This document shows, piece by piece, positions 5,764 through 47,237 of a stretch of 64,000 nucleotides of DNA. Under the pieces are notes generated by a model. The model made no database searches. It was not told the DNA's origin and worked only from the letters and a program-made list of their open reading frames with translations. How positions within the stretch are numbered: position 1 is the first letter of the stretch; the number at the start of each line of letters is the position of its first letter. Made by a program: the position numbers and the translations under genes. This DNA comes from a virus (taxonomy: Duplodnaviria > Caudoviricetes), in the IMG/VR virus record IMGVR_UViG_2721755486_000001, positions 96,001-160,000 of that record; one strand, written 5' to 3'.

Positions 5764-5804
5764 AGAACGAACGACAACACCGCAGCACTCGAGGAGAGCC
5801 AACC

Positions 5805-21807: not shown

Positions 21808-22485
21808 TCACACGAACACGCACCGCTGCTGCTGCTCGGGTTGCCAGGGGCAGGGCGTGCGCGTCACAGCGTGCACCATCGGGGAGGCGTAGCGCGGATC
21901 GTCCGCGGGGAACTCCACCGGGGCTTTCTTCCACGAGAACGCGGGCAAGACCGGGACGATGAGCCAGTCTGCCTCGGTGGCGAGCATGTCGGCGAAGGCC
22001 TCGACCTCGACCCGGTTGGACCGGAACACCCGGTACTTCCCGACTTGGCGGCGCTCGGCGAACGTCCCATCGAGCAGGCAGGCACGCTGGGCGTACAGCT
22101 CTTCGTGCGACACCAGCCCATGCTTGCGCATCGTGCGGACCTGCAGGCGCTCCCGGGCCAGGGTACGACGGTCGTACTCCGGGTCCTGTGCATGCTCGGC
22201 GATGTCCGCCTCCATCGCTTCAACCACGTCCATCCCGTCGGCTGAACCACGGACGAGCAGGGCAGCCCAATGCTCGCTCGGCACGGTGAAGTAAAAGCCC
22301 ACCCGGTCCGTGTCGAACCAGGACGGGTCCTCCACCCACTCGGGCACGAACACGTCGGCGTGGGGCAGGCGACGTCCCGCCAGATCGTCCAAGGCCCGGA
22401 AGATGTAAAAGTGCGGGTCCAGGGACCGCTCGACCAGGTGGACCGGGCGGCGGCGCTTCAGCTTCTCGTTGGCGGCTACCTTCAT
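21808..22485 (-). CDS. Hypothetical protein
   Basis: ATGA overlap with upstream gene, GGAGG RBS. Confidence 0.7.
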   Translation of the reverse strand: MKVAANEKLKRRRPVHLVERSLDPHFYIFRALDDLAGRRLPHADVFVPEWVEDPSWFDTDRVGFYFTVPSEHWAALLVRGSADGMDVVEAMEADIAEHAQDPEYDRRTLARERLQVRTMRKHGLVSHEELYAQRACLLDGTFAERRQVGKYRVFRSNRVEVEAFADMLATEADWLIVPVLPAFSWKKAPVEFPADDPRYASPMVHAVTRTPCPWQPEQQQRCVFV

Positions 22486-23882
22486 GCGGCACCTCCCATC
22501 CGGCCCGTGGCCGTGGCCTGGCTGGTCGGATTGAGCAGACGCTCCCGTAACGCGGCCAGGCGGTCCTGCACGTCCATGGGCAACGGGGCGCGCACCGGCT
22601 CGACCGCAACCGGAGCGACCGGCACCACCTCGTGCTCGCGCACCGGCAGGGGCTTACCCTCACGCAGGGCGTCCAGGAACTCCGCGTGGCGGGCAACGAT
22701 GGCGTCCTGGCGGTGGGCCAGCTCAGGGTTCAGCGGACGATAGAGCGGTGCCGATTCACCGGGCGACCGTACCGAACGTTCGGCACGCGGCGCGGCAGGT
22801 TCCGCTTTGCCCGTGCGCACGTCCTCCAGACGTTGGGCCAGACCGGCGAGCGCATCGTTGACCGGCTTCTCGCGCAAGGTCCGGCGACGCTGCTCCTCGA
22901 CCACCCGCTGTCCCGGCTTTGCTTGCACCGACCACCGGGCGACGCGTCGCGCTTCCTGCACCCACCGCTCGCCGGTGAGCAAGATGTGCCACCGCGCGTA
23001 GTGCTCGTGCCACCCACCGGGGGCCAGGCGTTCCCGCTCCTCCAATGCGAGGGACGACGGGCTGAACGAGGGGAAGGCGGTCCGCTCGCGATCGGTCATG
23101 CTCGGGCGCACCAGCACGGCGTTTTCCTCGACCAGGGCCCAGGCCGCCTCGTACCATCGGTCCAGGGGCACCTCGAACAGTGCGAACCGGCCTTGCGACA
23201 CGTCACGCGCCCCAAACTCGAATCGAAGGCGAAGGCGGACAGCACCACCCCGTTCGTTGGGCAGGCTCCGCAGGTCCCAACCGAAGTACCCCACCTCGCC
23301 GAAGGCCTGGGCCAAGACACGGAAGCGGGGGAAGGCCCAACGCTGACGCAGCGCGTGCATCGCGGCGTCGGTCCCCTTCACCGACAGCGGCAGCACATGG
23401 TTGGCCCCGTCCAGCAGAGCCTCACGACGGCGCGCGAGCAGCTTGACCGGATCGGTCGCGCGACCGAAGGCCAGCCAGTCCCGCCCGCCCTTGTCGTTCT
23501 GGCATTCCGCGCAGCAGAGCACGCGGTTTTCCTCCAGCGCCGTCCCGCCCAAGGCCAGGGGCACCAGCAGGTCCGCCATGGCACGGGGCGCACCGTCAAC
23601 CCGGCTCCCGGTGACCGAGAGGGTAAGACCGCAGTAGGCGCAGACCCCAGACTGCTGGTCGGCGAGGTACCGCACCATCCACGGCTCAGTGTGGCGCATC
23701 GACGCCCGCAGACCTTCGACAAGCTGGGAGAACAGCAGGTCCTGCAACGACCCGGGTTCCACCTTAACCGGTGGCACCTCGACCGGCTGATCCTCGTGGT
23801 CCGCAGGGTCGTACAGGTCCTCGTACGGCTCGTCGTGGTCGAACACCGTCAGGCTGGTGGGGCGCTTGAACATGCTCCCCAT
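22482..23882 (-). CDS. HNH-like Zn-finger protein with degenerate active site
   Basis: CAYCG...DLLVPLALGG..ENRVLCCAECQNDKG. Confidence 0.65.
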   Translation of the reverse strand: MGSMFKRPTSLTVFDHDEPYEDLYDPADHEDQPVEVPPVKVEPGSLQDLLFSQLVEGLRASMRHTEPWMVRYLADQQSGVCAYCGLTLSVTGSRVDGAPRAMADLLVPLALGGTALEENRVLCCAECQNDKGGRDWLAFGRATDPVKLLARRREALLDGANHVLPLSVKGTDAAMHALRQRWAFPRFRVLAQAFGEVGYFGWDLRSLPNERGGAVRLRLRFEFGARDVSQGRFALFEVPLDRWYEAAWALVEENAVLVRPSMTDRERTAFPSFSPSSLALEERERLAPGGWHEHYARWHILLTGERWVQEARRVARWSVQAKPGQRVVEEQRRRTLREKPVNDALAGLAQRLEDVRTGKAEPAAPRAERSVRSPGESAPLYRPLNPELAHRQDAIVARHAEFLDALREGKPLPVREHEVVPVAPVAVEPVRAPLPMDVQDRLAALRERLLNPTSQATATGRMGGAA

Positions 23883-23884
23883 GG

Positions 23885-24118
23885 TCAGACCTCGCTGCTC
23901 TCAACCGGGGTAGCGCGGCGCAGGCCCGCACCGTGGACGCGCTCGACCGCCTCGACAATGGCGTCCGGCACGGTGATGCCGTTCAGCTTCGCGTACGACA
24001 CCAGCAGCGCGTCCAGGTCCAGGGGGACCAGCAGGCTCCGGCGCTTGTGGGTGGTTTTCGAGCGCTTCGCCCAGTCGGCGTACACGGCCGCGCGGCGTTC
24101 AGGGTTTTTCGACGGCAT
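23885..24118 (-). CDS. Small ribbon-helix-helix-like regulator
   Basis: KRRSLLVPLDLDALLVSYAKLNGITVPDAIVEAV; GGAGGAG RBS; TTGCGC-16-TAGGTT promoter at 24174-24201. Confidence 0.55.
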   Translation of the reverse strand: MPSKNPERRAAVYADWAKRSKTTHKRRSLLVPLDLDALLVSYAKLNGITVPDAIVEAVERVHGAGLRRATPVESSEV

Positions 24119-24225
24119 GGGTCTCCTCCACGTTGACTAAGAAGGCTCGACGCCAAGGCGTCGGCATGACCCCAACCTAGCACCGCCTTGGGTTTGCGCA
24201 AGTCCATACGGTCGTGCCAGGGTAC

Positions 24226-26000
24226 ACCTCCACGGGGTTCGCCGGACGGCACCTGCAGGATCGCTCCGGCCTCGCCGGCCGGGCTGTCGGTTGTACGTTC
24301 GCGCTCGCCGCGCGGGCTGAAGGCTCTGACCTGGGGAGAAGGCTGAACCCGGATCGGTTCGATCGTGCTGTACAGGTGCAGGGGCAAGACGGCTCGGGCC
24401 AGGCGGAGGTCTACCACCACCAGGGGGAGGGTCGGACGCGCGGCTGGCCCGTGGCGTCGTACCGTGATCGAGGGGTGGAGGGATGGCACAGGCGGGGCAC
24501 TGCTCGACGCGCGGAGCGCGAACGGCTGAACGTCCAAGGAGGGAGGCGGCACCGCGCGCACGCGTGACCGGCACCGCCTCAACGGGACGGCACAGGACCC
24601 ACGCCGTCCCTGGTCCAGCGTTCCCGCACCGCAGCGCGGGCGGAGGTCGTGCGTTCGCTTCGCGGCACCGGCGCGGACGGCGCAACCGCTCCCGGTTCCG
24701 GCACCCCTTCGGGGAGCCGCGACCGGTCGGGTCGTCGCCTGATGTCCGCGCTCACGGTGCGCGCTCCGCGACCACGCACGCTGGACCGCCACCCCCAACG
24801 GCAGAGTCGGACACCACCCACGCTCCCCGGGGTACGGCGACCACGGGTCCAGCGTCGTCACCGAAGGACGGCGGGTACCGTTCACGCGTGCGCGTCCCAG
24901 TCGGGCGATGGGGCGGAACGGGAGCGCGGTGGCGGCGCACCGTCCACGGTCTGGATCACCCGTGCCAATGCACATGTTATACCGGTCATCAGGGCGTGAC
25001 CGGGGGCGCTGCGCGCGCTCGGCGGTTCGACCGACCGCACGTCGGACCCACCCGACCCGATCACGCGTTTCGTTGGTGCGAATGCCAGCGTCATACCGGT
25101 TACATGGGTCATACCCGGGGGCGCTGCGCGGCGCGAGCGTCCGGTGTACGTACACGCGCGGCGACGCACCGAGACCGGAGGCAGGGGAAGGCGGACCACC
25201 TCGCTGACGCGAACAACCCCAGCACCGTTACGTCCGCCTGGACTTGGCGACGCGTCGCCACGACCCGATGGGGCTGGGTCGCGCTGCACGCTGCGCGGCA
25301 ACGGCACGTCCAGGCAACGGCGAACGGCAACCCCGGACCCCACCGTCGTACCGCGTCGGCGTCACGCTGGGCGTTCCGTACCGCACGGCGACGGGCACCC
25401 CCACCGGGCAGCGGAGCAACGCTCCCCGGTACGGCAACGGCGAACCCCAACGGCGGGCGTTCGTCCGGGAGGCAGGGGCGGGTCCGAACGCTGAAGGCGA
25501 CACCGAACGGCGAACATCGAGGGAAGGAGGCTGTCCCTGGTGCGAGAGGAAGGGACGGGCACAGGGACAGCAGCGCGCACAGGTGGAGCAAGGACGTGCG
25601 CGGGGAGCAAGAGCGAGGGGGTACTGCGAAGGAGGAAAAGCGGTGAAGCGTCGTGCTGAAGCACTCGGTTCCTGGGATTTCGACGTCACACCTCCCTCTC
25701 GCGAAAAATCAAAGTCGGTACTCGGAGGGGGTGTTTGCGAAAATCCTGGAACGACACACCCTTCGCACCTTCGGTGTTTAAGAACCTACCCCCAGAACCA
25801 CCGCCATCGCCTTGCTGGGCCTGGCTCGGCTGCTTATGCAACGCATAAGCGAAAAACGCACGGCATGCAGCAAAGCACCGTCGAGCAAGGCTCAACCTGC
25901 ATAAGCTGCTTATGCAAGTCGACCGTTCGTCGGCTGGTTCCGCCAAACGCTGGACAAACGGCGAGGACCTGCCATGTTGGGTCATCACCACTTCCAACAG
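24226..26000. other. Long noncoding region between divergent operons; candidate oriT/oriV
   Basis: No credible CDS; ACGGC(A/G)ACGGC-type repeats at 25296-25515, GCTTATGC/GCATAAGC inverted repeats at 25832-25850 and 25898-25916; upstream of the RHH-T4CP-relaxase cluster. Confidence 0.4.
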
Positions 26001-26011
26001 GAGCGCCCAAC

Positions 26012-26497
26012 ATGCCCCGCACCCGCACCGTCCGAAGCCTCGCTGAAAACAGCCAGACCGACCGCAGCGCGACGCGCAACGGCAAGACCCTCGGCATCTA
26101 CGTCTCCACCGCGGAGGCCGCTCGTGTGGAGGAGGCACGCCAGGCTGCCGGATTCGACAGCACGAACCGCATGTTGCGCGACTTGCTGTTCGGTTTCCTC
26201 GATGGCCGCGACCAGCTCGAAGAACTGCGCGCCGAGCTGCTGGACAGCGTGACCCGCACGATCGAGGGAGCCGTCCCGTTGATGACCGATGCCGTCTCCT
26301 CGAAGACCGACGACAACGTCCGTGCGGCGCTGAGCGACACGGGCAAGTCCGAGCGGGAAACCCGGGCACGGTTGCAACTCGAGATGAAGAACCTCAGCAA
26401 CACCGTCCAGGCAGAGGTCGAGAAGATCGACCTGAAGTTCAAGGTGATCAACGACACGCTGGTCGCGATCCAGAAGGCCCTGGCCGCCAAGGCCTAA
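26012..26497 (+). CDS. RHH relaxosome accessory protein (MobC/TrwA-like)
   Basis: AGGAG RBS; KTLGIYVSTAEAARVEEARQAAGFDSTNRMLRDLL plus coiled coil; first gene of the transfer cluster. Confidence 0.55.
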   Translation: MPRTRTVRSLAENSQTDRSATRNGKTLGIYVSTAEAARVEEARQAAGFDSTNRMLRDLLFGFLDGRDQLEELRAELLDSVTRTIEGAVPLMTDAVSSKTDDNVRAALSDTGKSERETRARLQLEMKNLSNTVQAEVEKIDLKFKVINDTLVAIQKALAAKA

Positions 26498-26523
26498 CCC
26501 CGGCGACATCACGGAGGAGACAC

Positions 26524-29136
26524 GTGAAAAAGATCGCACTGGCGGTACTCAAGATGCTGGGCGTTCCCGAAGCCCAGCCCCCGAAGGCAGCAGAACCCCA
26601 ACCCCCGAAGGCAGCAGAACCCCAACCCGTTCAGACCGCCGTTCCGTTGGTGCAGGACCGTGCCCTGGCACCCTTTGTCCTTCCCACCGAGATCGACCGG
26701 ACCAAACCGCTGGCGGGTCAGGCGCTCCTGGCGTACACCAAGCCGGGCTCGGCGGACGGGAAGACCCAGCCGGTCGAACTCGTCCTCACGTTCCGCGACG
26801 CCACCACCTCGGTCGTGATCCTGGGCGGCACCGGGACGGGCAAGACCACGGGCGCTGGCATCCCGCTGCTGAAACGTCTGCACGACGCACGCGTGGCGAT
26901 GCTGGTCACCGACGTGGTGAAGGGCGACTACGCCAACGTCTGCCGTCGCCTGGACGGGAGCGTGATCCTGGGGCCGGCGAGCGACACGATGCCCAGCAAC
27001 CTCCTGGCGGGCTGGTCGGACCAGAAGCTCCGCGATTTCCTGACGCTGTACAGCTCGAAGGTGAAGGGCGGTGAGGCTTACTGGGGGAGCGAGGGCGTCA
27101 CCGACGCGGTGCTGATCGCGCGGTTCATCCGCCACGTCGAGCGCCGGGAGCCCACCCTGGCGGACCTGTTCCACTACCTCAACGAGCCGTTGAAGTTCGT
27201 GGCGCGCTACAAGCTGGCCCACCGGTTCCAGGCGCTCTACACCACCCAGGAGCAGCGAGAGGCGGCGGAGGACACGCTGGTGGCGCTGCGCTCCCGGGAG
27301 ACCGGGGCTTACGTGTTCTCCATGCTGCATTTCGCCAAGGACCCGTCGGCGAAGAAGGGCAAGACCACCGACATCATCACCCAGGTGGGCAGCGCGCCCC
27401 CGACCAAGGTTTCGATGGTGACGACGGACGACGCCAAGATTTTCGAGCAGTACGCCTGGCACGTGGCCAGCCTGCTGACCATCACCCGTCCGTTCTACGA
27501 GAACCCGAAACTGCGCCGGGCCTTCTGCGCGGACGTGGCCACCGGGATCGACTGGTTCGACCTGGTGTACGTACAGCAGCAGTTCATCGTCCTGGAAATG
27601 CCCACCCACACCTACGGGGAGGCAGCGCTGTTCGTCGCCGAAATCCTGCGCATGCAATACCACGACGTCATCCGTGGCGCGCAGGACCACCGGGACAGCC
27701 TGGTGATCGACGGCAAGCGCGTGGTCTACGGCGTCGACCGTTTCACCGGCGAGCTGCACGACGAGTTCCAGAAGATCCTGTCGGCGGACGGCTCCAGCAA
27801 CGATGACTCCAACTGGATCGACATTTCCCGGGGCTACGGCCACATCAACATCTTTCTGACCCAGAGCATCACCTCGCTGCACGGCAAGGCCAAGAACCAT
27901 TTCGCCGTCGAGGCGTTCGTCCAGAACTGCTGCAACGTCGTGTGCTTGCCGACCATCGACGAGCGCACGCTGACCTACATGGAGACCCTGGCCGGGCGCA
28001 AGGCGACGACCGTGCGCGAGCACCTGGTGATCCGGACGGGCCGCGAGGCGTTCGTCTACTTCGCCAGCGCATCGCTGAACGGCGGGGACACCTGGTCGGA
28101 GCTGGTGGAGGTCGGCACCTCCCGGTTCCCGCACATGCGGCACACCGTCATGCAGGAGATCATGGCCCGACCGGCGCTGGTGCGCGCGGCGAGCGCTGAC
28201 CTGGTTGCTCCGATCGAGGAGACCCGGGTTCCCCAATCGACGGACGAGATCACCGGTCGGGTGTTCTGCGTGACCACGGCGGCGATCCACTCGGACGGGT
28301 TCCTGGACTTCAAGAAGCGCCTGAGCCGGGGCGGCCACGCGATCACGGAAACCGTCCGCATGAAGGCGGCGAAGGAAGGCGTGGACGCCCGGGGCCACCT
28401 GTCGGAGGCGCTGGACCGGCTGGACGTGCTGTACCCGAACAAGGGCGACATCGTGGCGGTGGTGCGCGGGGGCGGGGACGTGAAGAACGGGCAGTTCGAC
28501 ACCTACAACGCCCCCGAAAGCGTCGCGGCCCTGGAAGCCCTGCGCGAGCGTGGGGTCTTCGTCGTGGTCGGCGTCGGGCACAGCGCCAACGACGACTGGG
28601 CGATCCACCGGGCCTGCGACCACGTGTGCGACGTGCCTTACCACGCCGGTGAGGTGGTGTCCCACCTGCTCGACAACTTGCGGTCGGCGTCGAACGAGGC
28701 GAACGTGGTGCTCGCCCGGGTGGGCGGCATCACGCTGACCAAGGGCGTCAACACCGGCATGCCGGAACCGCAGCCCAAGCCGCTGGTGAAGCCGGTGGTA
28801 GACGACAAGGAGGACGCGGCGGCGGAAATCGCTCCGACCGTCATGTCGACGGAGGAACCGATCGACCCGCCGTGGGACCCGCTCCCGAAGACCGGGTACA
28901 CCCCGGCCAGCCGTCCGGCGACGCAACCCGACCCGTTCGACGAACCGGGCACCCCGTCCGTGTCGACCATGGGCGCGGGCAACACCGCAGCGGCGGCGTC
29001 GTCGGGCTCGCCCCGTGCCCTGGCACCTGTTCCGGCGAAGAAGCCGAGCTGGCACGCGGGTGTTGGCTCGCGGGACGACCAGGACATTCAGCGGATCTTG
29101 TCCGAGCTGGACGACCCGCAGGACGGCAAGGACTGA
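26524..29136 (+). CDS. VirD4/TraD-like ATPase fused to an exonuclease VII large-subunit-like domain
   Basis: Walker A GGTGTGKT, HDEFQ, SRGYG..LTQS; then DIVAVVRGGG..VVVGVGH..ACD; no N-terminal TM. Confidence 0.7.
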   Translation: MKKIALAVLKMLGVPEAQPPKAAEPQPPKAAEPQPVQTAVPLVQDRALAPFVLPTEIDRTKPLAGQALLAYTKPGSADGKTQPVELVLTFRDATTSVVILGGTGTGKTTGAGIPLLKRLHDARVAMLVTDVVKGDYANVCRRLDGSVILGPASDTMPSNLLAGWSDQKLRDFLTLYSSKVKGGEAYWGSEGVTDAVLIARFIRHVERREPTLADLFHYLNEPLKFVARYKLAHRFQALYTTQEQREAAEDTLVALRSRETGAYVFSMLHFAKDPSAKKGKTTDIITQVGSAPPTKVSMVTTDDAKIFEQYAWHVASLLTITRPFYENPKLRRAFCADVATGIDWFDLVYVQQQFIVLEMPTHTYGEAALFVAEILRMQYHDVIRGAQDHRDSLVIDGKRVVYGVDRFTGELHDEFQKILSADGSSNDDSNWIDISRGYGHINIFLTQSITSLHGKAKNHFAVEAFVQNCCNVVCLPTIDERTLTYMETLAGRKATTVREHLVIRTGREAFVYFASASLNGGDTWSELVEVGTSRFPHMRHTVMQEIMARPALVRAASADLVAPIEETRVPQSTDEITGRVFCVTTAAIHSDGFLDFKKRLSRGGHAITETVRMKAAKEGVDARGHLSEALDRLDVLYPNKGDIVAVVRGGGDVKNGQFDTYNAPESVAALEALRERGVFVVVGVGHSANDDWAIHRACDHVCDVPYHAGEVVSHLLDNLRSASNEANVVLARVGGITLTKGVNTGMPEPQPKPLVKPVVDDKEDAAAEIAPTVMSTEEPIDPPWDPLPKTGYTPASRPATQPDPFDEPGTPSVSTMGAGNTAAAASSGSPRALAPVPAKKPSWHAGVGSRDDQDIQRILSELDDPQDGKD

Positions 29137-29217
29137 TCCACCCACCGGCAGGGCGCCCGCTCCCGCGCTCTGCCGGTGGTTCGAACCTGGGGGCGTACCT
29201 AGTTAGGAGGCGGTGCG

Positions 29218-29667
29218 ATGGGGATCTCGAAGCGAAGTGAGCCGGAGGGGCTGTCCGAGGTGCCGACCGAGGGCGAGAGCCCGTCGGTGATTGATCTGGA
29301 GCGCAACCTGGTGGCGGGGCTGAACGTCCTGCCGGAGGGAAAGCGGAAGGAGACGGTCGCGTTGCTGTTGAACGCGATTCGCACCCGCTCGACGGTCGTG
29401 CGGATCCGTGCGTTCGTCGCCATGGGCAAGGAGCATTGGATGGGCCACGACGATCACGTCCGGATTCAGCGCGCCCGGTGGCGCTACTGGTCGTTGCCGC
29501 GCGACGTGGTGGGGAGCAACGACGAACCGGCGACCGTGCAGGACGTGTCCGAACCGTCCGACCGCGAGGCGGAGAAGAGCTGGGCCCACCTGCTGGTGCG
29601 GTGCTACGGCCTCCCGTTGGGCGTGATCCTCCTGGTGGGCACCCTCGGCTACCTGGCGCTCCGCTGA
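29218..29667 (+). CDS. Hypothetical protein with C-terminal TM
   Basis: AGGAGG RBS; LPLGVILLVGTLGYLAL. Confidence 0.6.
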   Translation: MGISKRSEPEGLSEVPTEGESPSVIDLERNLVAGLNVLPEGKRKETVALLLNAIRTRSTVVRIRAFVAMGKEHWMGHDDHVRIQRARWRYWSLPRDVVGSNDEPATVQDVSEPSDREAEKSWAHLLVRCYGLPLGVILLVGTLGYLALR

Positions 29668-29926
29668 TCCCGATCTTGGTACGGGCGAGTCCGTGCCAGG
29701 GCACATCCCCATCCCGTGACACCCCCCAACCCCTCCCGGCGCTGGGGCCGGTTGACAAGCGGTGCTGACGCCGGTTCCTCGCGTGTCGGTGATCGACCCG
29801 GGCCCAGGGCGCGAAGCGGAATCGCCCGGTCCCGACCGGGTGGGGTTTCAGCGCGGTGGGGCGTAACTTGCGTAACGCTCCGCGACGGCTACCCTGGATC
29901 TTCCCATTCGGCAGGAGGACCAGGGC

Positions 29927-32497
29927 ATGGCCAAGATCGTTCACTGGGCGGCGTTCAAGCCGCCGGCCAACCTGGCACCTGACCAGCCGTACCGCCTGAT
30001 CGGCAGCGCCGTGGTGGGCGGTGCGGTCATCGGGACCGTCGCGTGGGCCGTGGCCGTGGGCGTGGAGTGGTGGGTCGCCAGCAAGACCGGTGCGCTCGGC
30101 GGGGTCAGCCACATGCCCCTGTCCAAGCACGCGCTCTACTGGTTTGAAACGTTCCTCCACCGCGAGATGCGCAACCGTCCGTTCGCCGACAACGTGGCGG
30201 CTTACCAGTACGGGCTGGACCAGATGAACTGGTGGCTGATCAAAGGCAAGGCCGCCCTGGCGACGGTGCCCGGTGTCGGGGTCGGCGCGTACATCACGTC
30301 GAAGATGAACCGCGTCTATTGCAACAGCCGACACCTGTCCGGCATGCAGTTCCACGACGGCAAGGACGCGGTGAAGCTCGCCGAGCAGGCGGTGCTCGAG
30401 CTGAACGGTGACCAGGCCCCGTTCCTCCCGTTGCACCCGGAGCTGACCTGGTTGAGCCAACAGGCGTGGAGCACGTCGGCGATCATCATGGGCGCGGCAG
30501 GTTCCGGGAAAAGTGCGATTCTGGCCCACCTCACGTACGAGGCATTGGTCCAGAACGTGTTCATGGTCATCATGGACGCCAAGGGCACCCAGAGCCACGT
30601 CATCAGGACGATTAACAAGCAGCTCGGGCGGCGGTCGGACAACGTGGCCACCATCAGTCCGTTCTCCGACACCGACGCGGCGTGGGACATTGGGCGGGAC
30701 CTAGTCCGCGACGAGGACGCCACGGTGTTCGCCAACGCTTACGTCCCACCGTCAAACGATCCCATGTGGTCCGACGGTGCGCGGGGCATCCTGCGAACCA
30801 TCGTCTTGTCGATGATCGTCGCCTACCGCGAGGCGTGCGCTCGTGCGGAAGCAGCGGGCGTGGAGAAGCCGAAGCCCTGGCACTGGGGCCACCTGGCGTA
30901 CCGCATCCAGTCGGCGATGAAGGACATTTACACCTGGGCGGCCGAGCACGACCCGGCGACCGCACGGCTGATCGCGGACTACGAGAAGTCCAACACGGTG
31001 AAGAGTTTTGAGGTGACGTTCCGCACGTTCAGCCTAGACATCATCAAGCTGGGCAAGGCGTGGGGAGAACCGGCCGACGGCGAACCGAAGCGTCGCCGCG
31101 TGTCCCTCCGGCTGTTCGTCGACCGGGTGGCGCGCAACGGTCGCAAGGGCGTTCACCAGATCGTGCTGCGCAACAACCTGGAGTACAAGGCCCTGACCAA
31201 GGGCTACCTGCTGGCGATGCACGCGTTCCTGACCGCGAAGATGCTCAGCCTGTCGGACAACCCGACCGATGGCACGGGCCGCACGCTGCTGTTCATGGAG
31301 GACGAGTTCACCAGCCAGGGCAAGAAGGAGTCGATTTTCGACGCGCTCGAGCTGGGCCGGTCGAAGGGCATGGTGCACGTCATCGCGGTGCAGACGGAGG
31401 ACGCTTTGGTCGAACTGTACGGGCAGGAGGGCCGGGGCCGGATCTCGGGCAACACCACGATCAAAATCCTGGGCCGGGCGGCGGCGCCGGAGATGGGGGC
31501 GCAGATGGCCGCCAACTTCCCGAAGCGCACGGTGCAGATCACGCACGAGGGGCGGCCCGCGGCGAAGGGCCAGCCGGCGACACCCACCACCTACGAGAGC
31601 GTCGAGGTCCCGGTGATCCGTCCGGAGATCCTGTCTTCCACCCGGGACATGGGCAAGCAGCGCGGGTCCTGGCTGGGAGGGCGCAAGGCAGGCATCAAAG
31701 CGGTGGTGCGGATCGGATCGGACCTCTACCACTTGCTCTGGCCGTTCATCGACAAGGACAAGATGCCGTCGGCGTCGGACGCGGCCGTTCCTCCGCTGGC
31801 CGCCTGGCTGGTGGGCGGGAAGGTCCCGGCGTTGCAGGACTACGCCCCGATGGTGCAGGTCGAGGCGCTGATGGCGCAGCAGGCCGCCACCCAGGCGGAG
31901 GCGTCCGCTGTTCCGACCGCCACCGCGAACGACGAGTCCGGTGGCGCTGCCCTGGACGCGATGCTCGCGGAGGGGGCGTCCGCGTCCGAGGAGCCGTCCG
32001 CCGAGCACGTGGCACCGACCGCTCCCGCGGCTCCCACACCGTCGAACGACCGCCCGCTGTCCCCGATGGAGCTGTATGAGCTGGAAATGCAGCGCAAGAA
32101 GGAACTGGTGGTGGAGACCGTGGAGGTGGACGTCGAGCGCGACAGCGAGGAGTACCAGCACGCCGTGGTCGACGCCGCCAACCTGCAGCGGGAGCAGGAG
32201 CGCCGCGGCGACTGGCACGACCCGGGCGAGATCGACGAGTCGACCTCACTGCTGCTCGAGGCGGTGGCCGGCCCGCTGGCGGACGCCATCGTTCCCGGTG
32301 GGCACCTGGTGATGGAAGCGTTGAAGATCGCCGAGGGGGCGCAGGCTCCCGCGAAAAACGTGGAGAACGTCATCGACAACCAGACCGGGGAGGTCCGGCA
32401 GGTCACCGTGGTGGCGCCGAATAAGCAGATCAGCATTGTTCGGCATGTCACGGCGCGCACGCAGACCCCGGAGAGCGAGCCCGAGCGGTCGCTTTGA
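29927..32497 (+). CDS. Type IV coupling protein (TrwB/TraD family)
   Basis: Two N-terminal TM segments, Walker A GAAGSGKS, MDAKG, FMEDEF, GRSKG..AVQ; directly upstream of the relaxase. Confidence 0.85.
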   Translation: MAKIVHWAAFKPPANLAPDQPYRLIGSAVVGGAVIGTVAWAVAVGVEWWVASKTGALGGVSHMPLSKHALYWFETFLHREMRNRPFADNVAAYQYGLDQMNWWLIKGKAALATVPGVGVGAYITSKMNRVYCNSRHLSGMQFHDGKDAVKLAEQAVLELNGDQAPFLPLHPELTWLSQQAWSTSAIIMGAAGSGKSAILAHLTYEALVQNVFMVIMDAKGTQSHVIRTINKQLGRRSDNVATISPFSDTDAAWDIGRDLVRDEDATVFANAYVPPSNDPMWSDGARGILRTIVLSMIVAYREACARAEAAGVEKPKPWHWGHLAYRIQSAMKDIYTWAAEHDPATARLIADYEKSNTVKSFEVTFRTFSLDIIKLGKAWGEPADGEPKRRRVSLRLFVDRVARNGRKGVHQIVLRNNLEYKALTKGYLLAMHAFLTAKMLSLSDNPTDGTGRTLLFMEDEFTSQGKKESIFDALELGRSKGMVHVIAVQTEDALVELYGQEGRGRISGNTTIKILGRAAAPEMGAQMAANFPKRTVQITHEGRPAAKGQPATPTTYESVEVPVIRPEILSSTRDMGKQRGSWLGGRKAGIKAVVRIGSDLYHLLWPFIDKDKMPSASDAAVPPLAAWLVGGKVPALQDYAPMVQVEALMAQQAATQAEASAVPTATANDESGGAALDAMLAEGASASEEPSAEHVAPTAPAAPTPSNDRPLSPMELYELEMQRKKELVVETVEVDVERDSEEYQHAVVDAANLQREQERRGDWHDPGEIDESTSLLLEAVAGPLADAIVPGGHLVMEALKIAEGAQAPAKNVENVIDNQTGEVRQVTVVAPNKQISIVRHVTARTQTPESEPERSL

Positions 32498-32627: not shown

Positions 32628-35600
32628 ATGCTTACGATGATGGCGCTGAGCCCGAAGGGCCACGACAAGAACGGGAACAACATCGTCAACTACTTCCTGG
32701 CGAAGGAAGCCCGTTATTACGTCAACGAGCTGACGGGGAAGATCGAGAACCAGACGAAATGGATCGGCAAGGGCGCAGAGGCCCTGGGGTTGAAGGGCGA
32801 GGTCAGCGAGGAGGTTCTGCTCAACCTGCTGAACGGCAAGCTCCCGGACGGGGCGAAGGGTGTGCAGAACATCGGCCGGCCCGGGCGTCGTGCGGCGTTC
32901 GACATGTGCGCCACGGCCGAGAAGACCGTGTCCATGCTGATGGCGGACCCGACCAACACCCCGGAAGAGCGGGAAGCGATCATCCAGGCGCACAAGCGCG
33001 CTGCGCGGGCCATGATCAAGTTCATCGAATCCGAGCTGTACGCGCGGGTGGGGGCCCAGGGCAACGAGATCGTCCGCAACGTCGGCATGATCGCGGCGGA
33101 GGTCACGCATTACACCAACCGCCTGCTGGAGCCCAATCTTCACACGCACTTTATTGTCATGAACATGGTGCACTCGATCGGCCCGGACGGGAAGGAACGG
33201 GTGACCACGTTCGAGAACAGCACCCTGATGGCGATCAAGCACGCAGCGGGAGCGATCTACCGGAACCAGCTTGCGCACGAGGTCCAGGAACTGGGCTACC
33301 AGATCGACAAGCACATCCAGCTCAACGCGAAGGGGCGCGAGACCGGGGACGTTTTTTTCCGGGTCGCCGGCGTCGACGAGTTCAGCCGCGATGCGCACAG
33401 CAAGCGCCGCATGGAGATCCTGGCGTACATGGAGGCCCACCCGGAGGTCACCGAGGACCAGGCCGCGGAGCGGACCAGGAAGGACAAGAACGAGCCCGGC
33501 ATCGTTGAGCTGCGCCAGATCTGGAAGGAACACTTCGAGGAAGTCCGGCGCAAGGACCCGAACGCCTACCAGTCCGTGGCGGCGTTGAAGGACCCGGCCG
33601 TTGTGTCGAACCTGGGCCACAAGGACCTGGAGCCGGTGAAGGGGCAGGAGAAGCAGCAGGACATGGCCCCGAAGTCCGACGACGAGATCCTCAAGACCGT
33701 CCACGTCGCGTCGTCCCTGTTCACCCGGTTCGAGCTGATGAAGCAGGTGGCGTTCGAATACGTCGGCCGCCTGGACATGCGCGGGGTGATCGAGAAGACC
33801 GAGGCGATCCTCGACGACGTGAAGCGCGTCGTCGCGTTCGAGCACGACCCGAAGACCGGGGTGGCGCGGTACGCGTCCCAGGCGATGATCGACCTGGAAG
33901 CGGGCATCATCAAGAAGGCCGCGGCGCGCGCCGACGAGCAGTCCATCCGCTTGACCAAGGAGCAGGTCGACGCGGGCCTGGCGAAGTTCCAGGCGAAGAA
34001 CCCGCACCTGAAGCTGAACGCCGAGCAGGAGGGCAGCGTCCGCTACATCTGTTCCGACACCGGGGGCAACGCGATCATCTCGGGCCGGGCTGGCACGGGC
34101 AAGACCACGTCGTTCATCGCCACCAAAATCACGTGGGAGGAGGCCGGCGGGAAGCTCATCGGCGTGTCCGAATCCTGGAAGGCCGCGAAGAAGCTGCAAA
34201 GCGAGAGCGGGGTGGAGAGCTACTCCACCCGTACGACCCTGCACCGGATCAAAAACGGCAAGCTCCCGCTGGACAGCAAGACCATGCTCATCGTGGACGA
34301 GGCAGGCATGCAGACCTCCCAGAGCATCGCGGAGCTGCAGAACCTTTGCGATGCGGCCGGCGCGAAGCTGGTGCTGATGGGCGACCACCTGCAGTTGCAG
34401 CCGGTGGGCGCCGGGTCGGGCTTCCGGATCATGCAGGCCCGGGTCCAGGACCACGCGCTGAAGGAGATCCGCCGTCAGCGCCAGGAGCGCGACCGCATCA
34501 CGGCGAACATGCTGTACGACGAGCGCGACGGCCAGAAGATTTTCGAGCGCTACATGGCCAACGGCCACATTCGCACCTCGGAGACCGAAGTGGAAGCCCG
34601 GGCCATGTTGGTCAAGGACTATTTCAAGTCCGAGGGCGTCGCCGAGTCCGACACGGTGAAGCTGATGGTGAGCGGTGAGCTGCGCGAGGTCGAAATGGCG
34701 GTGCGCGACAAGGTGGTGTTCAGCGCGGGGGACAAGGCGCTGGGCATCAACGCGAACGACATCGGCGTGGTGCGGGCCATGGAGATGAAGGAGGCCGGCG
34801 AGGGCTACTTGATCCAGGTGGAGGTGACGCCGGCCGATCTCAACAAGCCGAAGCACACGGTGTCGATCGACACGAGCGTGTTCAACGAGTTCAACCGGGA
34901 CTACGCGCAGACGTTGGTGATCTGCGGGACCAACCGTGAGGTGCAACAGATGAACGAGGACATTCGCCAGGGATTCAAGGACCGGGGCCTGCTGGGCGAC
35001 GACCAGCGGGTGCGGCTGATCGTCAACGACGAGTGGCGCCAGGAGATCGTGGCCACCGGTGACAAGGTGCTGTTCACCGAGAAGCACGACGACCTGGGCG
35101 TGTCGAACGGCGAGGGCGGGATCGTCACTCAGCTCCGGCCGTCCGACGACAAGAAAAGCCACATCATGACCATCCGGCTGGTCTCCGAGATCCCGGAGCA
35201 GAACGGGCGCTACGTGTCGTTCGACACGAAGGATTGCCCGGACGTCATGCTGGCCTACGCGGGCACCGTCCACAAGAGCCAAGGCCAAAGCATCGACAAG
35301 ACCCTGCACTACGTGGGTCCGGGCGGTGTGCACATGGTCAACAACCAGTCGGCGCTGGTGGCGATGACCCGGATGAAGGACGAGTACGGCATCTACGGCG
35401 TGGACGAGGACCTGCTCGGGCGGATCGACGAGGACGGCACCCGGCGCGGTGGCATCGCCCAGGCCCTGACGGAGCAGGCCCTGAACGTCACCACCATGGA
35501 CGTTCAGCGGATCACCCGCGAGGAAGCGAAAGAGATCCGTCCGCAGCAGCGCGGGGCGGCCCGTCGTTTGGAACCGATCAAGGCACCGCCGGAGCTGGCC

Positions 35601-35996
35601 GAGACCCGGGCGGAGGAGCGCGAGTCGATCAAGGCGCGCAGCATCGCCCAGGCGGCGGAGAGCGAGGAGGCATCCCGCCAGCGCCTGGCCAGCGGGGCGA
35701 CCACCGTGGACCTGCGCACGCGCGAGGCGGCGAACGAGCGGGAGGCGTCGACCGTCCAGACGAAGAGCCAGTTCGCGACGGCCCTGCCGGAACTCACGGC
35801 TCACCGTGCCAAGGTACGGGCGGCGCACGAAGCACGGCAGAAGGCCGAGGCCCAGGCGTTGGCGAAGCGCGAGGCGGAGCAGCAGGCCTTGGCCGTGGCG
35901 CAGAAGACGGAGCAGGCGCGCAAGCTGGAGGCCGAACGGGTGCTGCGCTTGCAGCGCGAGCGCGAGGCCGAGGTGTTCTACGGTCGCAGCCGGTAA
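32628..35996 (+). CDS. MOBF relaxase-helicase (TrwC/TraI-like)
   Basis: N-terminal Y..YY, FDMCATAEKTVS, HYTNRLLEPNLHTH; helicase GRAGTGKT, DEAGM, GDHLQLQPV, YAGTVHKSQG. Confidence 0.92.
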   Translation: MLTMMALSPKGHDKNGNNIVNYFLAKEARYYVNELTGKIENQTKWIGKGAEALGLKGEVSEEVLLNLLNGKLPDGAKGVQNIGRPGRRAAFDMCATAEKTVSMLMADPTNTPEEREAIIQAHKRAARAMIKFIESELYARVGAQGNEIVRNVGMIAAEVTHYTNRLLEPNLHTHFIVMNMVHSIGPDGKERVTTFENSTLMAIKHAAGAIYRNQLAHEVQELGYQIDKHIQLNAKGRETGDVFFRVAGVDEFSRDAHSKRRMEILAYMEAHPEVTEDQAAERTRKDKNEPGIVELRQIWKEHFEEVRRKDPNAYQSVAALKDPAVVSNLGHKDLEPVKGQEKQQDMAPKSDDEILKTVHVASSLFTRFELMKQVAFEYVGRLDMRGVIEKTEAILDDVKRVVAFEHDPKTGVARYASQAMIDLEAGIIKKAAARADEQSIRLTKEQVDAGLAKFQAKNPHLKLNAEQEGSVRYICSDTGGNAIISGRAGTGKTTSFIATKITWEEAGGKLIGVSESWKAAKKLQSESGVESYSTRTTLHRIKNGKLPLDSKTMLIVDEAGMQTSQSIAELQNLCDAAGAKLVLMGDHLQLQPVGAGSGFRIMQARVQDHALKEIRRQRQERDRITANMLYDERDGQKIFERYMANGHIRTSETEVEARAMLVKDYFKSEGVAESDTVKLMVSGELREVEMAVRDKVVFSAGDKALGINANDIGVVRAMEMKEAGEGYLIQVEVTPADLNKPKHTVSIDTSVFNEFNRDYAQTLVICGTNREVQQMNEDIRQGFKDRGLLGDDQRVRLIVNDEWRQEIVATGDKVLFTEKHDDLGVSNGEGGIVTQLRPSDDKKSHIMTIRLVSEIPEQNGRYVSFDTKDCPDVMLAYAGTVHKSQGQSIDKTLHYVGPGGVHMVNNQSALVAMTRMKDEYGIYGVDEDLLGRIDEDGTRRGGIAQALTEQALNVTTMDVQRITREEAKEIRPQQRGAARRLEPIKAPPELAETRAEERESIKARSIAQAAESEEASRQRLASGATTVDLRTREAANEREASTVQTKSQFATALPELTAHRAKVRAAHEARQKAEAQALAKREAEQQALAVAQKTEQARKLEAERVLRLQREREAEVFYGRSR

Positions 35997-36178: not shown

Positions 36179-37087
36179 GTGTTGATCACCATCAATACCG
36201 ACAAGCAGCTCGTTCGTGTCGACACCTGGGACGAGATCAGTGAGCGGGCCGGTTTCACAAACGATCTTGATCCGAAGCAGCACGAGCTGAAAGCGATCAT
36301 CGGGCGGTATGCGTTTCGGGACAAACTTCGGTGTGGGTTGTCGAGCTGCCACACGCCGCACAACCGCGGCTACATCGTGGTGACGAAGAGCGGACTCGAG
36401 ACGAACATCGGCAAGGATTGCGGAAAGACCCACTTCGGTGTGGACTTCAGCGACATGTCGCGTCAGTTTGAGCGCGACGTGACCGAGAAGGAGAACCGCG
36501 AAACGCTCTGGAGCTTCCATTTCCGTCTCGACGATCTGACGCAAGCGATCGACGGGATCCGGAAGGGCGACCGGGGCGCGGATTGGCTGTACAAGCGCTC
36601 ACGACCCCTGGTCGAACTGAACCGGGGGTGTCCGGCGGCGATCGTCCGCCGTGTGGGGGACATGATCAAAACGGGTAGCAGCTTGGTCGTGGTCCCGCGA
36701 GAGGCCACGAAAGCGGAGACCGATGCGGAAGAGGCTCGTACGGGTCGACGGGTACCGCGTCCGCACTACATCGACGAGCCCGTCGGGCAAATCGGGCATC
36801 TGGACGCGTTGTACCGAGAAAACGATGTCCGCGAGATCTTGGTGCTCGACCTGGAAGCGCGGTGCAAGGCACTCGCCGATCTCGACATCGACACCATGAC
36901 CTATGAACAGTTGGCGAAATGGGTCAAGTGGACGGGCACGGTTGAAGAGAAGCTCCAACGGGCGCAGAACGCCGTGGAGTCCGGCCGCCAGTTGCTCACC
37001 CAGCGCAACTTGTCGTGCCTGTCGCGCATCCTCACGGACCCCGTGGATGCCGACGCGTTTGGGGAGTACCTGGCAACGCTCGACTAA
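36179..37087 (+). CDS. Hypothetical protein with Cys/His cluster
   Basis: CGLSSCHTPH..IGKDCG; 302 aa. Confidence 0.7.
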   Translation: MLITINTDKQLVRVDTWDEISERAGFTNDLDPKQHELKAIIGRYAFRDKLRCGLSSCHTPHNRGYIVVTKSGLETNIGKDCGKTHFGVDFSDMSRQFERDVTEKENRETLWSFHFRLDDLTQAIDGIRKGDRGADWLYKRSRPLVELNRGCPAAIVRRVGDMIKTGSSLVVVPREATKAETDAEEARTGRRVPRPHYIDEPVGQIGHLDALYRENDVREILVLDLEARCKALADLDIDTMTYEQLAKWVKWTGTVEEKLQRAQNAVESGRQLLTQRNLSCLSRILTDPVDADAFGEYLATLD

Positions 37088-44793: not shown

Positions 44794-45969
44794 CTACGCG
44801 GACCGGCCCGGCAGGCCCATGCGCTCCCGGAGCTTCTGGGTGAGCGTTTCGATGGCGGCGCGTTCGTCCGTCACCTTGGGCGTCTTGTGCAGCTCGACCC
44901 ACCAGGTGCTGATCTGGTCCTCCGGCACGTCGAACCGGCGCAGCCAAGTCTCGGTGGCCACCACCGTGTTCAGGAGCGGGGAGGTGCTGTCGAGCGTCCC
45001 GTCCTGCAACGTGTCGATCGTGTCGGCCACGATCGGGCGCAGCGCCTGGTTGAGGATCACGTACGCGGGCGGCGGCAGGACCGGCTTGCCCGGACCGTCG
45101 GAGATCCCGGTTTCCGGCGCGGCACCCGCCTGGATGATGAGGCCACCGTCGCCCAAGGGCTCGCGGATGAACCAGTCCGGCGGGAGCGCGAGGGACGACG
45201 CACCGCCGACCTCGCGGACCAGCTCCGCGTCGAGCGCGTTCAGCCAGTCCACCGTCTTGATCTTCGTGTAGAGCTTGCGCACGTTCACACGCGCGGGGTC
45301 GCCCACGTCGACGCCGGGCCCGAAGCGGCGGGCGTAGAAGAACTCGCTGGCCTCGTTCGGGCGGCGGCCCATCGGGGGCACGTTCACCGCAAACCCGGCG
45401 TGACCGTGGACGGTGGGCAGGGCCTCGGCGAAGGCGTTGAACATCGCTTGGAACCGAGCGGGGCGGTGCACGAGGAACGCACGCGGGACGGTGAAGGACA
45501 CCGCATCCAGGCCGCGCTTGCGTTCGGCTTTCCAGTCGCTCAGCGCGAACACGGTGAAATCGTAGAAACCGGTGGCGAGCTTGTGGTCGGCGCTGGTCAT
45601 GGCCACGGCCAGCGTCTGGTTGGCGGGCACCGACGACGCCAGGCGTGCGAATCCCGACGGGTCGTAGGCGGTCGGGTCCTCTCCCTCGGCGTACAGCCAG
45701 CGCAGGGGGCCGGTCTTCGACGGCTCCTGGCCGGCGGCCACTTCGCTGGCGTGGTGGTACTCGTCGATCACCGCGCTGTACTGCTCGAAGCAGCTCACGA
45801 GCGCCTTGCGGACCTCGGGGGTGCACCCGTTGCGGAAATACAGGGCGCCCCGGACCACCAGCGCGGCGCCGGTGATCCCCTTGCGGTGCGGGGGCTCGTA
45901 GAGGCCATAAGGCATCGTGTCCGCGCGGCGCGGATCCTTCGCCCAGGCTTCGATCTGATCGTTTGTCAT
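44794..45969 (-). CDS. DUF3396/TsiV-like T6SS immunity protein
   Basis: HGHAGFAV..RRFGPGVDVG..IKTVDWL..IQAG..P.Y..WLRRF; downstream of a VRR-Nuc effector. Confidence 0.8.
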   Translation of the reverse strand: MTNDQIEAWAKDPRRADTMPYGLYEPPHRKGITGAALVVRGALYFRNGCTPEVRKALVSCFEQYSAVIDEYHHASEVAAGQEPSKTGPLRWLYAEGEDPTAYDPSGFARLASSVPANQTLAVAMTSADHKLATGFYDFTVFALSDWKAERKRGLDAVSFTVPRAFLVHRPARFQAMFNAFAEALPTVHGHAGFAVNVPPMGRRPNEASEFFYARRFGPGVDVGDPARVNVRKLYTKIKTVDWLNALDAELVREVGGASSLALPPDWFIREPLGDGGLIIQAGAAPETGISDGPGKPVLPPPAYVILNQALRPIVADTIDTLQDGTLDSTSPLLNTVVATETWLRRFDVPEDQISTWWVELHKTPKVTDERAAIETLTQKLRERMGLPGRSA

Positions 45970-45978
45970 GGCGTCAAC

Positions 45979-46719: not shown

Positions 46720-47237
46720 GCGTCGGTCCCCGGCTGGTGGAACGACAGGGACGAGGCCTGGTGCCCTTCGAGCCAGTCGGTGAACCCGTTCGCATCGGTC
46801 TTGCCCTGGACCACGCGACCGTCGGACGACGTGACGGTGTACGGGTGATTGGGGAGGGGCTGGCGCGTGGCGTCGTCGACCACCTGGAATCGTCCGCGCT
46901 GGGGCGTGTCCTGGCTGGCTTGCGACAGCACGCTCTTGCCGCCACCGATCGACCCACCGGGACCGCTGGTCGGCTCGGCCGTGGCGGTGCTTTGGCTGGC
47001 GATCAGCGATGCGCCGCAGGCGGTCGTGTCACCTTCAGAGGCAACGGGCCGCCCGTCGAAGGTCATGCCCAGGTTTTTGACGCCGACGATCGGGTAAATG
47101 CCGCCGCACTTCGGGCAGGAGACCTTGTCGCCAAGCAGGGCGAGCGGTCGACCGTCAACCTTGTTTTCCGGCGCGCAGGCGAGAACACGACCGCCGTGCG
47201 AGGTGGTGTCCCCCTCGCGAATGAACGCAAAACCCAT
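46716..47237 (-). CDS. PAAR domain protein
   Basis: GDTTSHGG, GDKVSCPKC, GDTTACGASLI. Confidence 0.9.
   Translation of the reverse strand: MGFAFIREGDTTSHGGRVLACAPENKVDGRPLALLGDKVSCPKCGGIYPIVGVKNLGMTFDGRPVASEGDTTACGASLIASQSTATAEPTSGPGGSIGGGKSVLSQASQDTPQRGRFQVVDDATRQPLPNHPYTVTSSDGRVVQGKTDANGFTDWLEGHQASSLSFHQPGTDA

Follow-up and report, generated by a model that had tools for sequence, protein, structure and literature searches.

The described systems closest to the gene analysed here are the type IV coupling proteins (T4CPs; VirD4, TrwB, TraD and Cag-beta) and XseA, the large subunit of exonuclease VII (ExoVII). The gene, P0001, encodes a fusion protein of 870 amino acids (aa) and lies in a stretch of 64,000 nt (IMG/VR record IMGVR_UViG_2721755486_000001, positions 96,001 to 160,000), which as a whole we call the window. 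The window has a GC content of ~0.66 and occupies positions 1969597-2033596 of C1, the largest contig of a three-contig 7.95-Mb genome. P0001 resembles the T4CPs in its P-loop nucleotide-binding domain with a helical insert, in its best structural matches, and in its apparent place in a DNA-transfer (Dtr) operon by a MOBF relaxase. It differs from them in that it lacks an N-terminal transmembrane (TM) domain, carries an added nuclease domain, and has a canonical T4CP alongside it, encoded two genes downstream. With XseA (PF02601, TIGR00237, PDB 8txr), it shares the catalytic alpha/beta domain, equivalents of D155, R205 and H238, and the TP motif, whereas the OB fold, the XseB-binding helix, the C-terminal domain and a cognate XseB are all missing. 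P0001 also scores below the curated XseA cut-offs. It thus lacks four defining features of that subunit (the OB fold, the helix with the C-terminal domain, XseB and the score), and we do not regard it as an XseA orthologue.

Two further groups of known systems invite comparison. The HerA-nuclease machines (HerA-NurA, SIR2-HerA, DUF4297-HerA, TdpAB and MAD7-MAD8 of MADS) likewise pair a ring ATPase of the FtsK/HerA type with a DNA-degrading effector, and the protein P0006 weakly matches the PADLOC HerA family (E 0.0013). However, the effector of those machines is a separate protein of another fold, while in P0001 it is fused in cis and of the ExoVII type. The element carrying P0001 also resembles mobilizable plasmids with their own T4CP (MobB of CloDF13, or those linked to TraA and MobF relaxases), which have a relaxase and a coupling ATPase and no mating-pair apparatus of their own (PMC7431656; all articles cited by PMC number were available to us in part, and what we take from them refers to that part). 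Unlike P0001, the T4CPs of such plasmids have no nuclease domain and are the sole T4CP of their element.

The most fitting description of P0001 is a new domain architecture in which two known modules are combined. A literature search, with most subscription journals outside its reach, found no description of a T4CP-ExoVII fusion or of a nuclease-bearing T4CP. In the available part of PMC10835039, the ExoVII catalytic fold has no other described context, and its mode of engaging DNA is called unclear. We propose, at what we judge an even chance, that P0001 is an ATP-driven, XseB-independent nuclease for single-stranded DNA (ssDNA) that acts on conjugative DNA intermediates. Both folds, the intact ATPase and nuclease motifs, the missing TM segment, the missing XseB and the conserved gene order are the observed parts of this picture.

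The reading frame is open for 870 codons on the + strand (26524-29136), with a GTG start and no internal stop. A GGAGGAG Shine-Dalgarno sequence stands 4 nt 5' of the GTG, the GC contents of the three codon positions (0.66/0.45/0.91) give the same signature as the other real genes of the window, and homologues that are 70-88% identical share the N-terminal peptide MK.IA.AVL. It is a genuine gene. An antisense open reading frame (ORF) at 26509-29145 (878 aa) was rejected as the shadow frame usual at high GC. RNA libraries of two studies hold contigs ~90% identical to the region, among them an 18,094-letter contig from X15 that spans 26398-31864; DNA carry-over is possible, and these contigs are no proof of transcription. 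The protein is laid out as follows.

26524..29136, + strand: fusion gene P0001, 870 aa; TM-less T4CP-like ATPase, then ExoVII-type nuclease domain, then acidic tail
26524..26700, + strand: N-terminal 59 residues; short hydrophobic peptide KKIALAVLKMLG, then the Pro-rich repeat PQPPKAAE twice (from the translation)
26701..28191, + strand: predicted T4CP-like P-loop ATPase, residues 60-556, a nucleotide-binding domain with a helical insert (AlphaFold2, Foldseek)
28192..28251, + strand: linker, residues ~557-576, predicted disordered, its length varying among relatives (low model confidence, gap-rich alignment)
28252..28692, + strand: predicted XseA catalytic-domain homologue, residues 577-723 (Pfam, hhalign, AlphaFold2 with Foldseek, VIA-align)
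28726..29133, + strand: Pro/Ala/Asp-rich tail, residues 735-870, with three short conserved motifs

Within the N-terminal peptide, K2, I4, A5, A7, V8 and L9 are invariant in seven close relatives. We considered KKIALAVLKMLG as a TM helix and rejected it as too short and too weakly hydrophobic. Elsewhere in P0001 no TM segment was found either: the best 19-residue Kyte-Doolittle mean is 1.16, compared to 2.09 in the neighbouring T4CP.

The ATPase half belongs to the coupling-protein type. Residues 60-740 were modelled with AlphaFold2 (mean predicted local distance difference test score, pLDDT, 86.5), and Foldseek matched the model best to Cag-beta (8dol, E 2.1e-9) and next to TrwB (1gl7, E 6.2e-9), with all TrwB and Cag-beta matches (8dol, 1gl7, 1e9s) falling between E 2e-9 and 2e-8 at target template-modelling scores of 0.45-0.61. 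The HerA defence complexes (SIR2-HerA, DUF4297-HerA, TdpAB), HerA-NurA and VirB4 followed, the HerA matches at E 1.4e-7 to 4e-7. Walker A (GGTGTGKT, residues 101-108, nt 26824-26847) and Walker B (D413-E414) are invariant in alignments of 8-29 relatives, G, K, D and E being kept in the alignment of 29. TrwB_AAD_bind is matched by 26 of 32 family members (E up to 0.01). P0001 itself scores 20.8 bits on T4SS-DNA_transf (cut-off 20.1, with no single stretch passing) and 17.8 bits on TraG-D_C, below the cut-off of 22; its DUF87 match is also weak. As modelled, residues ~60-556 are a P-loop ATPase with the T4CP fold, closer to T4CPs than to HerA, and the best explanation is that P0001 is a soluble member of the T4CP branch of the FtsK/HerA ATPases. 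By analogy with TrwB and Cag-beta, this ATPase would form a ring that binds or threads DNA.

That the HerA complexes SIR2-HerA, DUF4297-HerA, TdpAB and HerA-NurA are the nearest structures after the T4CPs is one point in favour of a rival reading, which we consider somewhat unlikely. Here P0001 would be a weapon against plasmids or phages, a decoy coupling protein that recognises incoming or competing relaxase-ssDNA complexes or other foreign DNA, which the ExoVII-type nuclease then destroys. It would serve exclusion or fertility inhibition, or travel as defence cargo of mobile elements, following the logic of the HerA-nuclease defence complexes. The PADLOC family mad8, the ATPase of the MAD7-MAD8 ATPase-nuclease module (PMC13662399), is matched by two family members, P0013 (E 1.9e-11) and P0007 (E 8.9e-6). 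However, these matches cover the generic ATPase core only, and P0001 itself has no PADLOC family match (E up to 0.01).

Beyond a linker in which pLDDT falls below 50 (protein residues 557-574, model residues 498-515) and the family alignment is rich in gaps, P0001 carries a series of XseA-like motifs: VFCVTT at 580, LDF with D595, VRGGG at 647-651, GVGH at 683-686, and P705. Pfam Exonuc_VII_L (PF02601) matches residues 589-725 at E 3.3e-4 (20.7 bits), or E 1.5e-5 (25.1 bits) for the domain alone, and NCBIfam xseA matches P0001 at E 4.8e-5. For P0001 alone this sequence evidence is weak, and the ExoVII signal is firm at the level of the family. PF02601 is matched by 25 of 32 aligned members (best E 6.7e-17), the family profile ranks E. 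coli XseA (8txr) first among PDB sequences (E 0.0059), and hhalign aligned that profile with the XseA of P0001's own genome (461 aa) at 95.9% and E 5e-9 over 122 columns, including RGGG, GVGH..D and the TP motif. Structural comparison agrees. With an AlphaFold2 model of residues 560-745 (pLDDT 88.1, predicted template-modelling score 0.81), Foldseek placed three 8txr XseA chains first (E 4.7e-7 to 6.2e-6), followed by generic SIS and flavodoxin-like folds. VIA-align against 48,161 representative chains also ranked 8txr_A first, aligning 127 residues within XseA 137-264 at 24% identity, with Z 15.1 and a root-mean-square deviation of 2.7 A; the second-best chain reached Z 11.6. As modelled, residues 577-723 are the catalytic fold of the ExoVII large subunit.

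The catalytic residues are kept within this fold. D595 (nt 28306-28308), R648 followed by GGG (from nt 28465) and H686 (nt 28579-28581) are the equivalents of XseA D155, R205 and H238. All 32 aligned members retain D595, G649, G650, H686 and P705, while R648 is found in 29 and an acidic residue 2-5 places past the His in 26; the downstream TP motif of XseA is also kept. In P0001, the equivalent of D241 is shifted, standing one place later (GHSAND) than in GHxxD. Domain identity among the aligned members is 13-35%, save for one relative at 77%. In E. coli XseA, D155, R205, H238 and D241 are essential, and alanine substitutions abolish ExoVII activity (PMC3439923). The conserved motifs thus suggest a nuclease activity, with ssDNA as the presumed substrate.

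By contrast, little else of XseA is present. The Pfam match to P0001 spans only positions 24-151 of 315, and that of TIGR00237 only 140-269 of 389. No OB-fold family matched, and the region N-terminal of the nuclease domain is occupied by the ATPase and the linker. The XseA C-terminal domain and XseB-binding helix are absent from P0001, and the shortest family members stop ~10-15 residues past the TPT motif, so the XseB-binding helix is no family feature. There is no XseB-like gene in the window; the single XseB (PF02609) of the 7.95-Mb genome lies at C1:3606754, ~1.6 Mb away, and the single canonical XseA (461 aa) at C1:1148437, also far from the window. A third weak PF02601 match, on contig C2, was set aside as its open frame bears sigma-70 factor motifs (judged by eye, with no family scan). 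Across the genomes analysed by Poleszak et al., XseA and XseB homologues are equal in number (PMC3439923). The fused domain breaks this equality, which argues for XseB-independent working, and it is presumably active without XseB. A search for a stand-alone or split nuclease domain among proteins of 30-477 aa returned one truncated fragment only.

A sequence-only reading of this DNA had already suggested a second, TM-less VirD4-like ATPase fused to an ExoVII-like domain with collinear XseA motifs and without an XseB-like gene nearby. The Walker motifs, the Cag-beta and TrwB matches and the hydropathy maximum bear out the first element, and the motifs lie where that reading had placed them, with 8txr at the top of both structural searches. 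The structure prediction that it had recommended as a check found the XseA fold, and XseB proved to be confined to its distant locus.

Past the nuclease domain, the tail contains DPFDEPG (803-809), PRALA (830-834) and GSRD..DI.RI..ELD (848-863), whose columns are invariant in seven relatives. It is restricted to the Burkholderia-type lineage, and members of 612-743 aa have no tail. By analogy with the TraD tail, which docks on TraM, it may dock on a partner, and the combination of its conserved motifs with a conserved 149-aa membrane protein encoded next to it suggests docking to partners as well. This bears on another rival reading, quite unlikely in our view, in which P0001 is an adaptor or second substrate receptor without nuclease chemistry: the ExoVII-like domain would only bind ssDNA or a partner, the protein would help the membrane T4CP to recruit the relaxosome, and the upstream accessory protein could be the docking site of the acidic tail, as TraM is for the TraD tail. 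The three tail motifs are consistent with this, as is the NCBI label of one relative, "TraM recognition domain-containing protein". The XseA fold is moreover related to non-nuclease enzymes, the 3-dehydroquinate dehydratases (PMC10835039), and the subunit that completes the fold in E. coli, XseB, has no gene near the fusion. However, the catalytic D, R and H are kept in 29-32 of 32 very divergent members, which is hard to explain without catalysis, and it is the nuclease domain that marks the family, the tail being confined to one lineage.

Sequence comparison indicates that the fusion is a family rather than a local accident. A profile search of 1.84 billion representative proteins returned 1963 at E <= 0.001 and 181 at E <= 1e-30. 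The ~70 best matches are TM-less, and from ~E 1e-40 onwards the matches include classical T4CPs, which have 2-4 TM segments at the N terminus; the ESM Atlas agrees. Of the best 150 clusters at 50% identity, 35 have the C-terminal domain, and most of these keep RGGG and GH, a count that is partly circular because the hidden Markov model was built from members of the same set. Two metagenomic proteins, P0021 (931 aa) and P0023 (794 aa), are the sole ones among the 35 fused clusters to combine two N-terminal TM helices with the ATPase and the ExoVII-type domain. Unlike P0001, they are membrane-anchored and T4CP-like in their N-terminal helices. In a FastTree phylogeny of 142 ATPase domains, the well-supported set that contains P0001 has 52 rows, half of them fused and half unfused (26 each).

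A scan of genome contigs with an 8-sequence alignment gave two full loci and one 375-bp fragment, and a metagenome scan gave 14 loci: two of the Burkholderia type, 10 of an enterobacterial plasmid type (one a 1.3-kb fragment), and the single contigs L017 and L022. L022 was rejected as a family locus, being an ordinary T4CP beside VirB11 and VirB3. No family member was found in two scans of IMG/VR. The P0001 gene is rare: among genomes from its taxonomic family, 395 others were scored (five further ones were unscored) and none has it.

In the Burkholderia-type lineage, the fusion stands among four co-oriented genes.

26012..26497, + strand: small gene, 161 aa; codon periodicity in frame from near 25950
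29218..29667, + strand: 149-aa protein with one C-terminal hydrophobic anchor at ~residues 122-146 (hydropathy)
29927..32497, + strand: canonical T4CP, 856 aa; TrwB_AAD_bind E 4.2e-18, TraG-D_C E 4.3e-12
32628..35996, + strand: MOBF relaxase-helicase of the TrwC type, 1122 aa; TrwC E 2.8e-65, AAA_30 E 3.6e-47

The order small gene, fusion, 149-aa gene, T4CP, TrwC recurs in all five Burkholderia/Paraburkholderia loci, namely the window, two Paraburkholderia genomes and two metagenome contigs. Across the related loci, the fusion is 70-88% identical and the T4CP 49-84%. The gaps between the five genes are 26, 81, 259 and 130 nt, and no terminator-like site was found on the + strand between 25500 and 36500. 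The best explanation is that the fusion is the second cistron of a Dtr operon in the window element. Given this position, P0001 most likely acts on a conjugative intermediate.

The T4CP has a hydrophobic segment from residue 24 and is the only PF10412 match of the genome, and the relaxase also matches NCBIfam MobF above its cut-off (E 1.4e-55). The sequence-only reading had placed P0001 between a ribbon-helix-helix accessory gene and a canonical T4CP plus relaxase. The latter two are as described, whereas the label of the first is unconfirmed: the 161-aa protein has a short N-terminal segment that is possibly ribbon-helix-helix and a coiled-coil-like C-terminal half, with no Pfam, NCBIfam or PDB sequence match. 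Its gene is full-length in three of four related loci, represented by its C-terminal half in L009, and not detected in L004. It is possible that the protein is a relaxosome accessory protein. The 149-aa gene directly follows the fusion in 4/4 related loci (46-83% identity), and its product had no match in family searches.

No mating apparatus of the element's own was evident. VirB4 (PF03135) had no match in P0001's own genome or in the two Paraburkholderia genomes carrying the cluster, TrbL (PF04610) had none anywhere in the own genome, and TIGR03744 had none there, the control likewise giving none. Secretion-type genes were found in the genome at one place only, on contig C3 (159232-162839), where a TrbI/VirB10 homologue (E 2.3e-27) lies 3 kb from an 842-aa frame with a weak AAA_10 match. 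These could be a divergent type IV secretion system that mobilises the window element in trans. With VirB4 missing and TrbI/VirB10 on C3, the element looks mobilizable in trans rather than self-transmissible.

Other features border the operon. Directly 3' of the relaxase, a 302-aa protein (36179-37087, + strand) matches PHROG 7003, of unknown function, over its full length (E 2.3e-69) and has no Pfam or NCBIfam family. On the other side, the 1.9 kb from 24118 to 26012, between the Dtr operon and a divergent HNH-like operon, show no codon periodicity (0.7-0.77 GC at all positions), and the longest ORF translates into Arg-rich nonsense. Still, its identity across three related loci is 82-85%, a conservation close to that of the flanking genes, and it is a candidate origin of transfer, regulatory region or non-coding RNA. 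No Rfam family reached its gathering score between 20000 and 40000. The divergent trio (21808-24118, - strand) encodes proteins of 77, 466 and 225 aa, and three of four related loci have all three genes while L004 has two. For the 466-aa protein, the matches are to HNH endonuclease PHROGs (E 9.8e-8) and, at a weak level, to the HNH region of Cas9d.

Outside this lineage, the contexts differ. Plasmids of ~40 kb in Klebsiella, Salmonella, Citrobacter, Serratia and other enterobacteria encode a 658-aa homologue, 28-30% identical, that is annotated "DUF87 domain-containing protein". An S. Typhi plasmid of the same family has been called cryptic (PMC5245908). One of these plasmids, pLH375-4, carries type IV pilins, a DotA/TraY-family protein, an LPD7 protein, ankyrin proteins, ParA, H-NS, a type III restriction-modification system and toxin-antitoxin genes; it has no relaxase and no second T4CP, and its LPD7 protein lacks an HUH-type motif. 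Window and pLH375-4 have only the fusion in common, plus a weak ankyrin match. Two secreted proteins of the window (198 and 175 aa) were considered as type IV pilins and rejected. Separately, ankyrin-repeat proteins recur around the family, with two in the window (4675-7400, + strand), three on the enterobacterial plasmid L002 (20435-22203) and one at the C terminus of P0022. The contig L017 (11.5 kb, low GC) has TerD, a helix-turn-helix protein and DUF285 nearby and no transfer gene. More distant ATPase-only relatives on small plasmids adjoin TraA or MobF relaxases, and one of these, a 499-aa protein on a Selenomonas plasmid, is TM-less, with no hydrophobic segment. Therefore, of the three fused lineages examined for context, one is clearly in a transfer operon.

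All 21 plasmids that share a DUF927-type replicase at >= 92% identity carry the fusion, as a backbone gene. This could also indicate a role in maintenance, which we find very unlikely: P0001 would act on ssDNA from relaxase-driven rolling-circle replication of the excised element, or on replication intermediates of the cryptic plasmids. ParA genes lie near the fusion in both types of element, and the missing VirB4 (PF03135) match in three genomes means that frequent self-transfer is not evident. However, no replication gene is adjacent in the window, and the fusion was matched in none of 67 records (< 60% identity) of a related ~30-kb plasmid family whose DUF927 replicase is distant. The T4CP-type fold also points to transfer-type DNA handling, and with TrbI/VirB10 and the weak AAA_10 match on C3 a secretion system may exist in trans.

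Returning to the proposed nuclease for conjugative intermediates, we envisage a ring-forming motor that carries an ExoVII catalytic domain on a flexible linker. The motor would stand in for XseA's OB fold in binding DNA, and for the XseB-coated helix and C-terminal domain of XseA in oligomerisation. The ATPase ring may bind or thread DNA and offer it to up to six tethered nuclease domains. Its substrate would be a conjugative intermediate, such as the relaxase-capped single strand (T-strand) or related ssDNA, and at the coupling step P0001 might trim or remove ssDNA, or stalled complexes of relaxase and DNA. In this scheme, hexamer formation, nuclease activity, the ssDNA substrate and the role in transfer are the parts that we infer.

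Several observations weigh against the proposal. P0001 is below the curated cut-offs of both ExoVII families (20.7-25.1 vs. 35.9 bits for PF02601; 22.7 vs. 180 for TIGR00237), and a few family members lack RGGG. The nuclease fold of E. coli XseA is completed by a strand from XseB (PMC10835039), and a domain without XseB may therefore have little or no activity. To explain the fused state, 7-13 gains or losses are needed on the ATPase tree, in which the losses are inflated because some "unfused" rows are truncated proteins from contig ends. The near relative P0022 is unfused and has C-terminal ankyrin repeats in the nuclease domain's place, and conflict systems, too, typically vary in their C-terminal module. 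Deletion mutants of TrwB, MobB and PcfC that are TM-less do not function in transfer (PMC7431656); given that these mutants are inactive, we do not read the soluble P0001 as a stand-alone coupling protein. Finally, 21/21 enterobacterial plasmid records are typed as non-mobilizable, and no recognisable relaxase or other T4CP stands beside the fusion in these 21 plasmids or in L017. The link to transfer that the sequence-only reading had drawn is seen in all five Burkholderia/Paraburkholderia loci and is not recognisable in these others. Its own question of whether the fusion occurs mostly outside transfer loci leaves the claim weakened, with one lineage of three in such an operon.

Part of this evidence speaks for a weapon against foreign DNA. 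The C-terminal module varies within the clade, as it would in a conflict system, and the enterobacterial carriers are cryptic, have no recognised relaxase, and bear type III restriction-modification and toxin-antitoxin genes; one of them, pTy031_01, appears under "phage defence (R-M)" in PMC5245908. The presence of the fusion in every plasmid with the backbone replicase has also been counted on this side, and the window is rich in conflict genes. Yet the gene of the Burkholderia lineage sits inside the Dtr operon and not in the defence block at 44-58 kb, and the two IMG/VR scans yielded no family member.

A more specific version of this idea, the "T-strand shredder", also appears unlikely to us, and a little more so. 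A T4CP-like ring would recognise relaxase-capped conjugative ssDNA, to which coupling proteins naturally bind, and the tethered, XseB-independent ExoVII domain would degrade it, sabotaging the transfer of a helper or competitor or destroying incoming plasmids. ExoVII removes 5'-tyrosyl adducts. It has also been reported to process DNA-protein crosslinks (PMC10835039). If true, this would be a new class of anti-conjugation immunity made of conjugation parts, used by mobile elements that have no mating apparatus themselves.

The window holds further genes of the defence and conflict type. At 48160-50139 (- strand), a 659-aa protein consists of a reverse transcriptase domain (RVT_1, E 6.9e-20) and, fused to it, a trypsin-like peptidase domain (E 4.2e-14). 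The sequence-only reading had tentatively tied P0001 to a "retron", probably meaning this gene. Nothing found here supports the tie: the gene is 19 kb away, lies on the opposite strand and belongs to a different block, of defence type, together with an integrase and a PARIS-like pair. The latter belong to a low-GC insert (53921-57429, + strand, GC 0.50-0.57), with a tyrosine integrase (53921-55291), an AAA_15/AAA_21 ATPase (55551-56657) and then a DUF4435 protein (frame 56413-57429). We take this ATPase and DUF4435 pair to be the make-up of a PARIS defence system. From 44794 to 48115 (- strand), a PAAR protein (46716-47237), a VRR-NUC nuclease (45979-46719) and a TsiV immunity protein (44794-45969, E 1.6e-85) form, judging by their families, a type VI secretion effector-immunity block, after which comes a gene for an SOS-response-associated peptidase (SRAP; 47417-48115, - strand). 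A 719-aa protein (58525-60684, - strand) joins ParB-like N-terminal regions (PRTRC ParB, E 1.8e-10; ParB helix-turn-helix) to a C-terminal H-NS DNA-binding domain (E 2.8e-13), and a deoxynucleotide monophosphate kinase-like gene lies at 61115-61657.

Exonuclease VII has so far been known only as the XseA-XseB repair enzyme. In the family described here, its catalytic domain occurs without an OB fold or XseB and is wired to a different DNA-handling engine, presumably in active form. The family therefore offers a natural minimal system for ExoVII chemistry. Its members may reveal either an unrecognised DNA-processing step at the coupling stage of conjugation or a weapon against conjugative DNA. 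A function for the only T4CP-like gene of the widespread, cryptic ~40-kb enterobacterial plasmids would help to explain how these plasmids persist or move.

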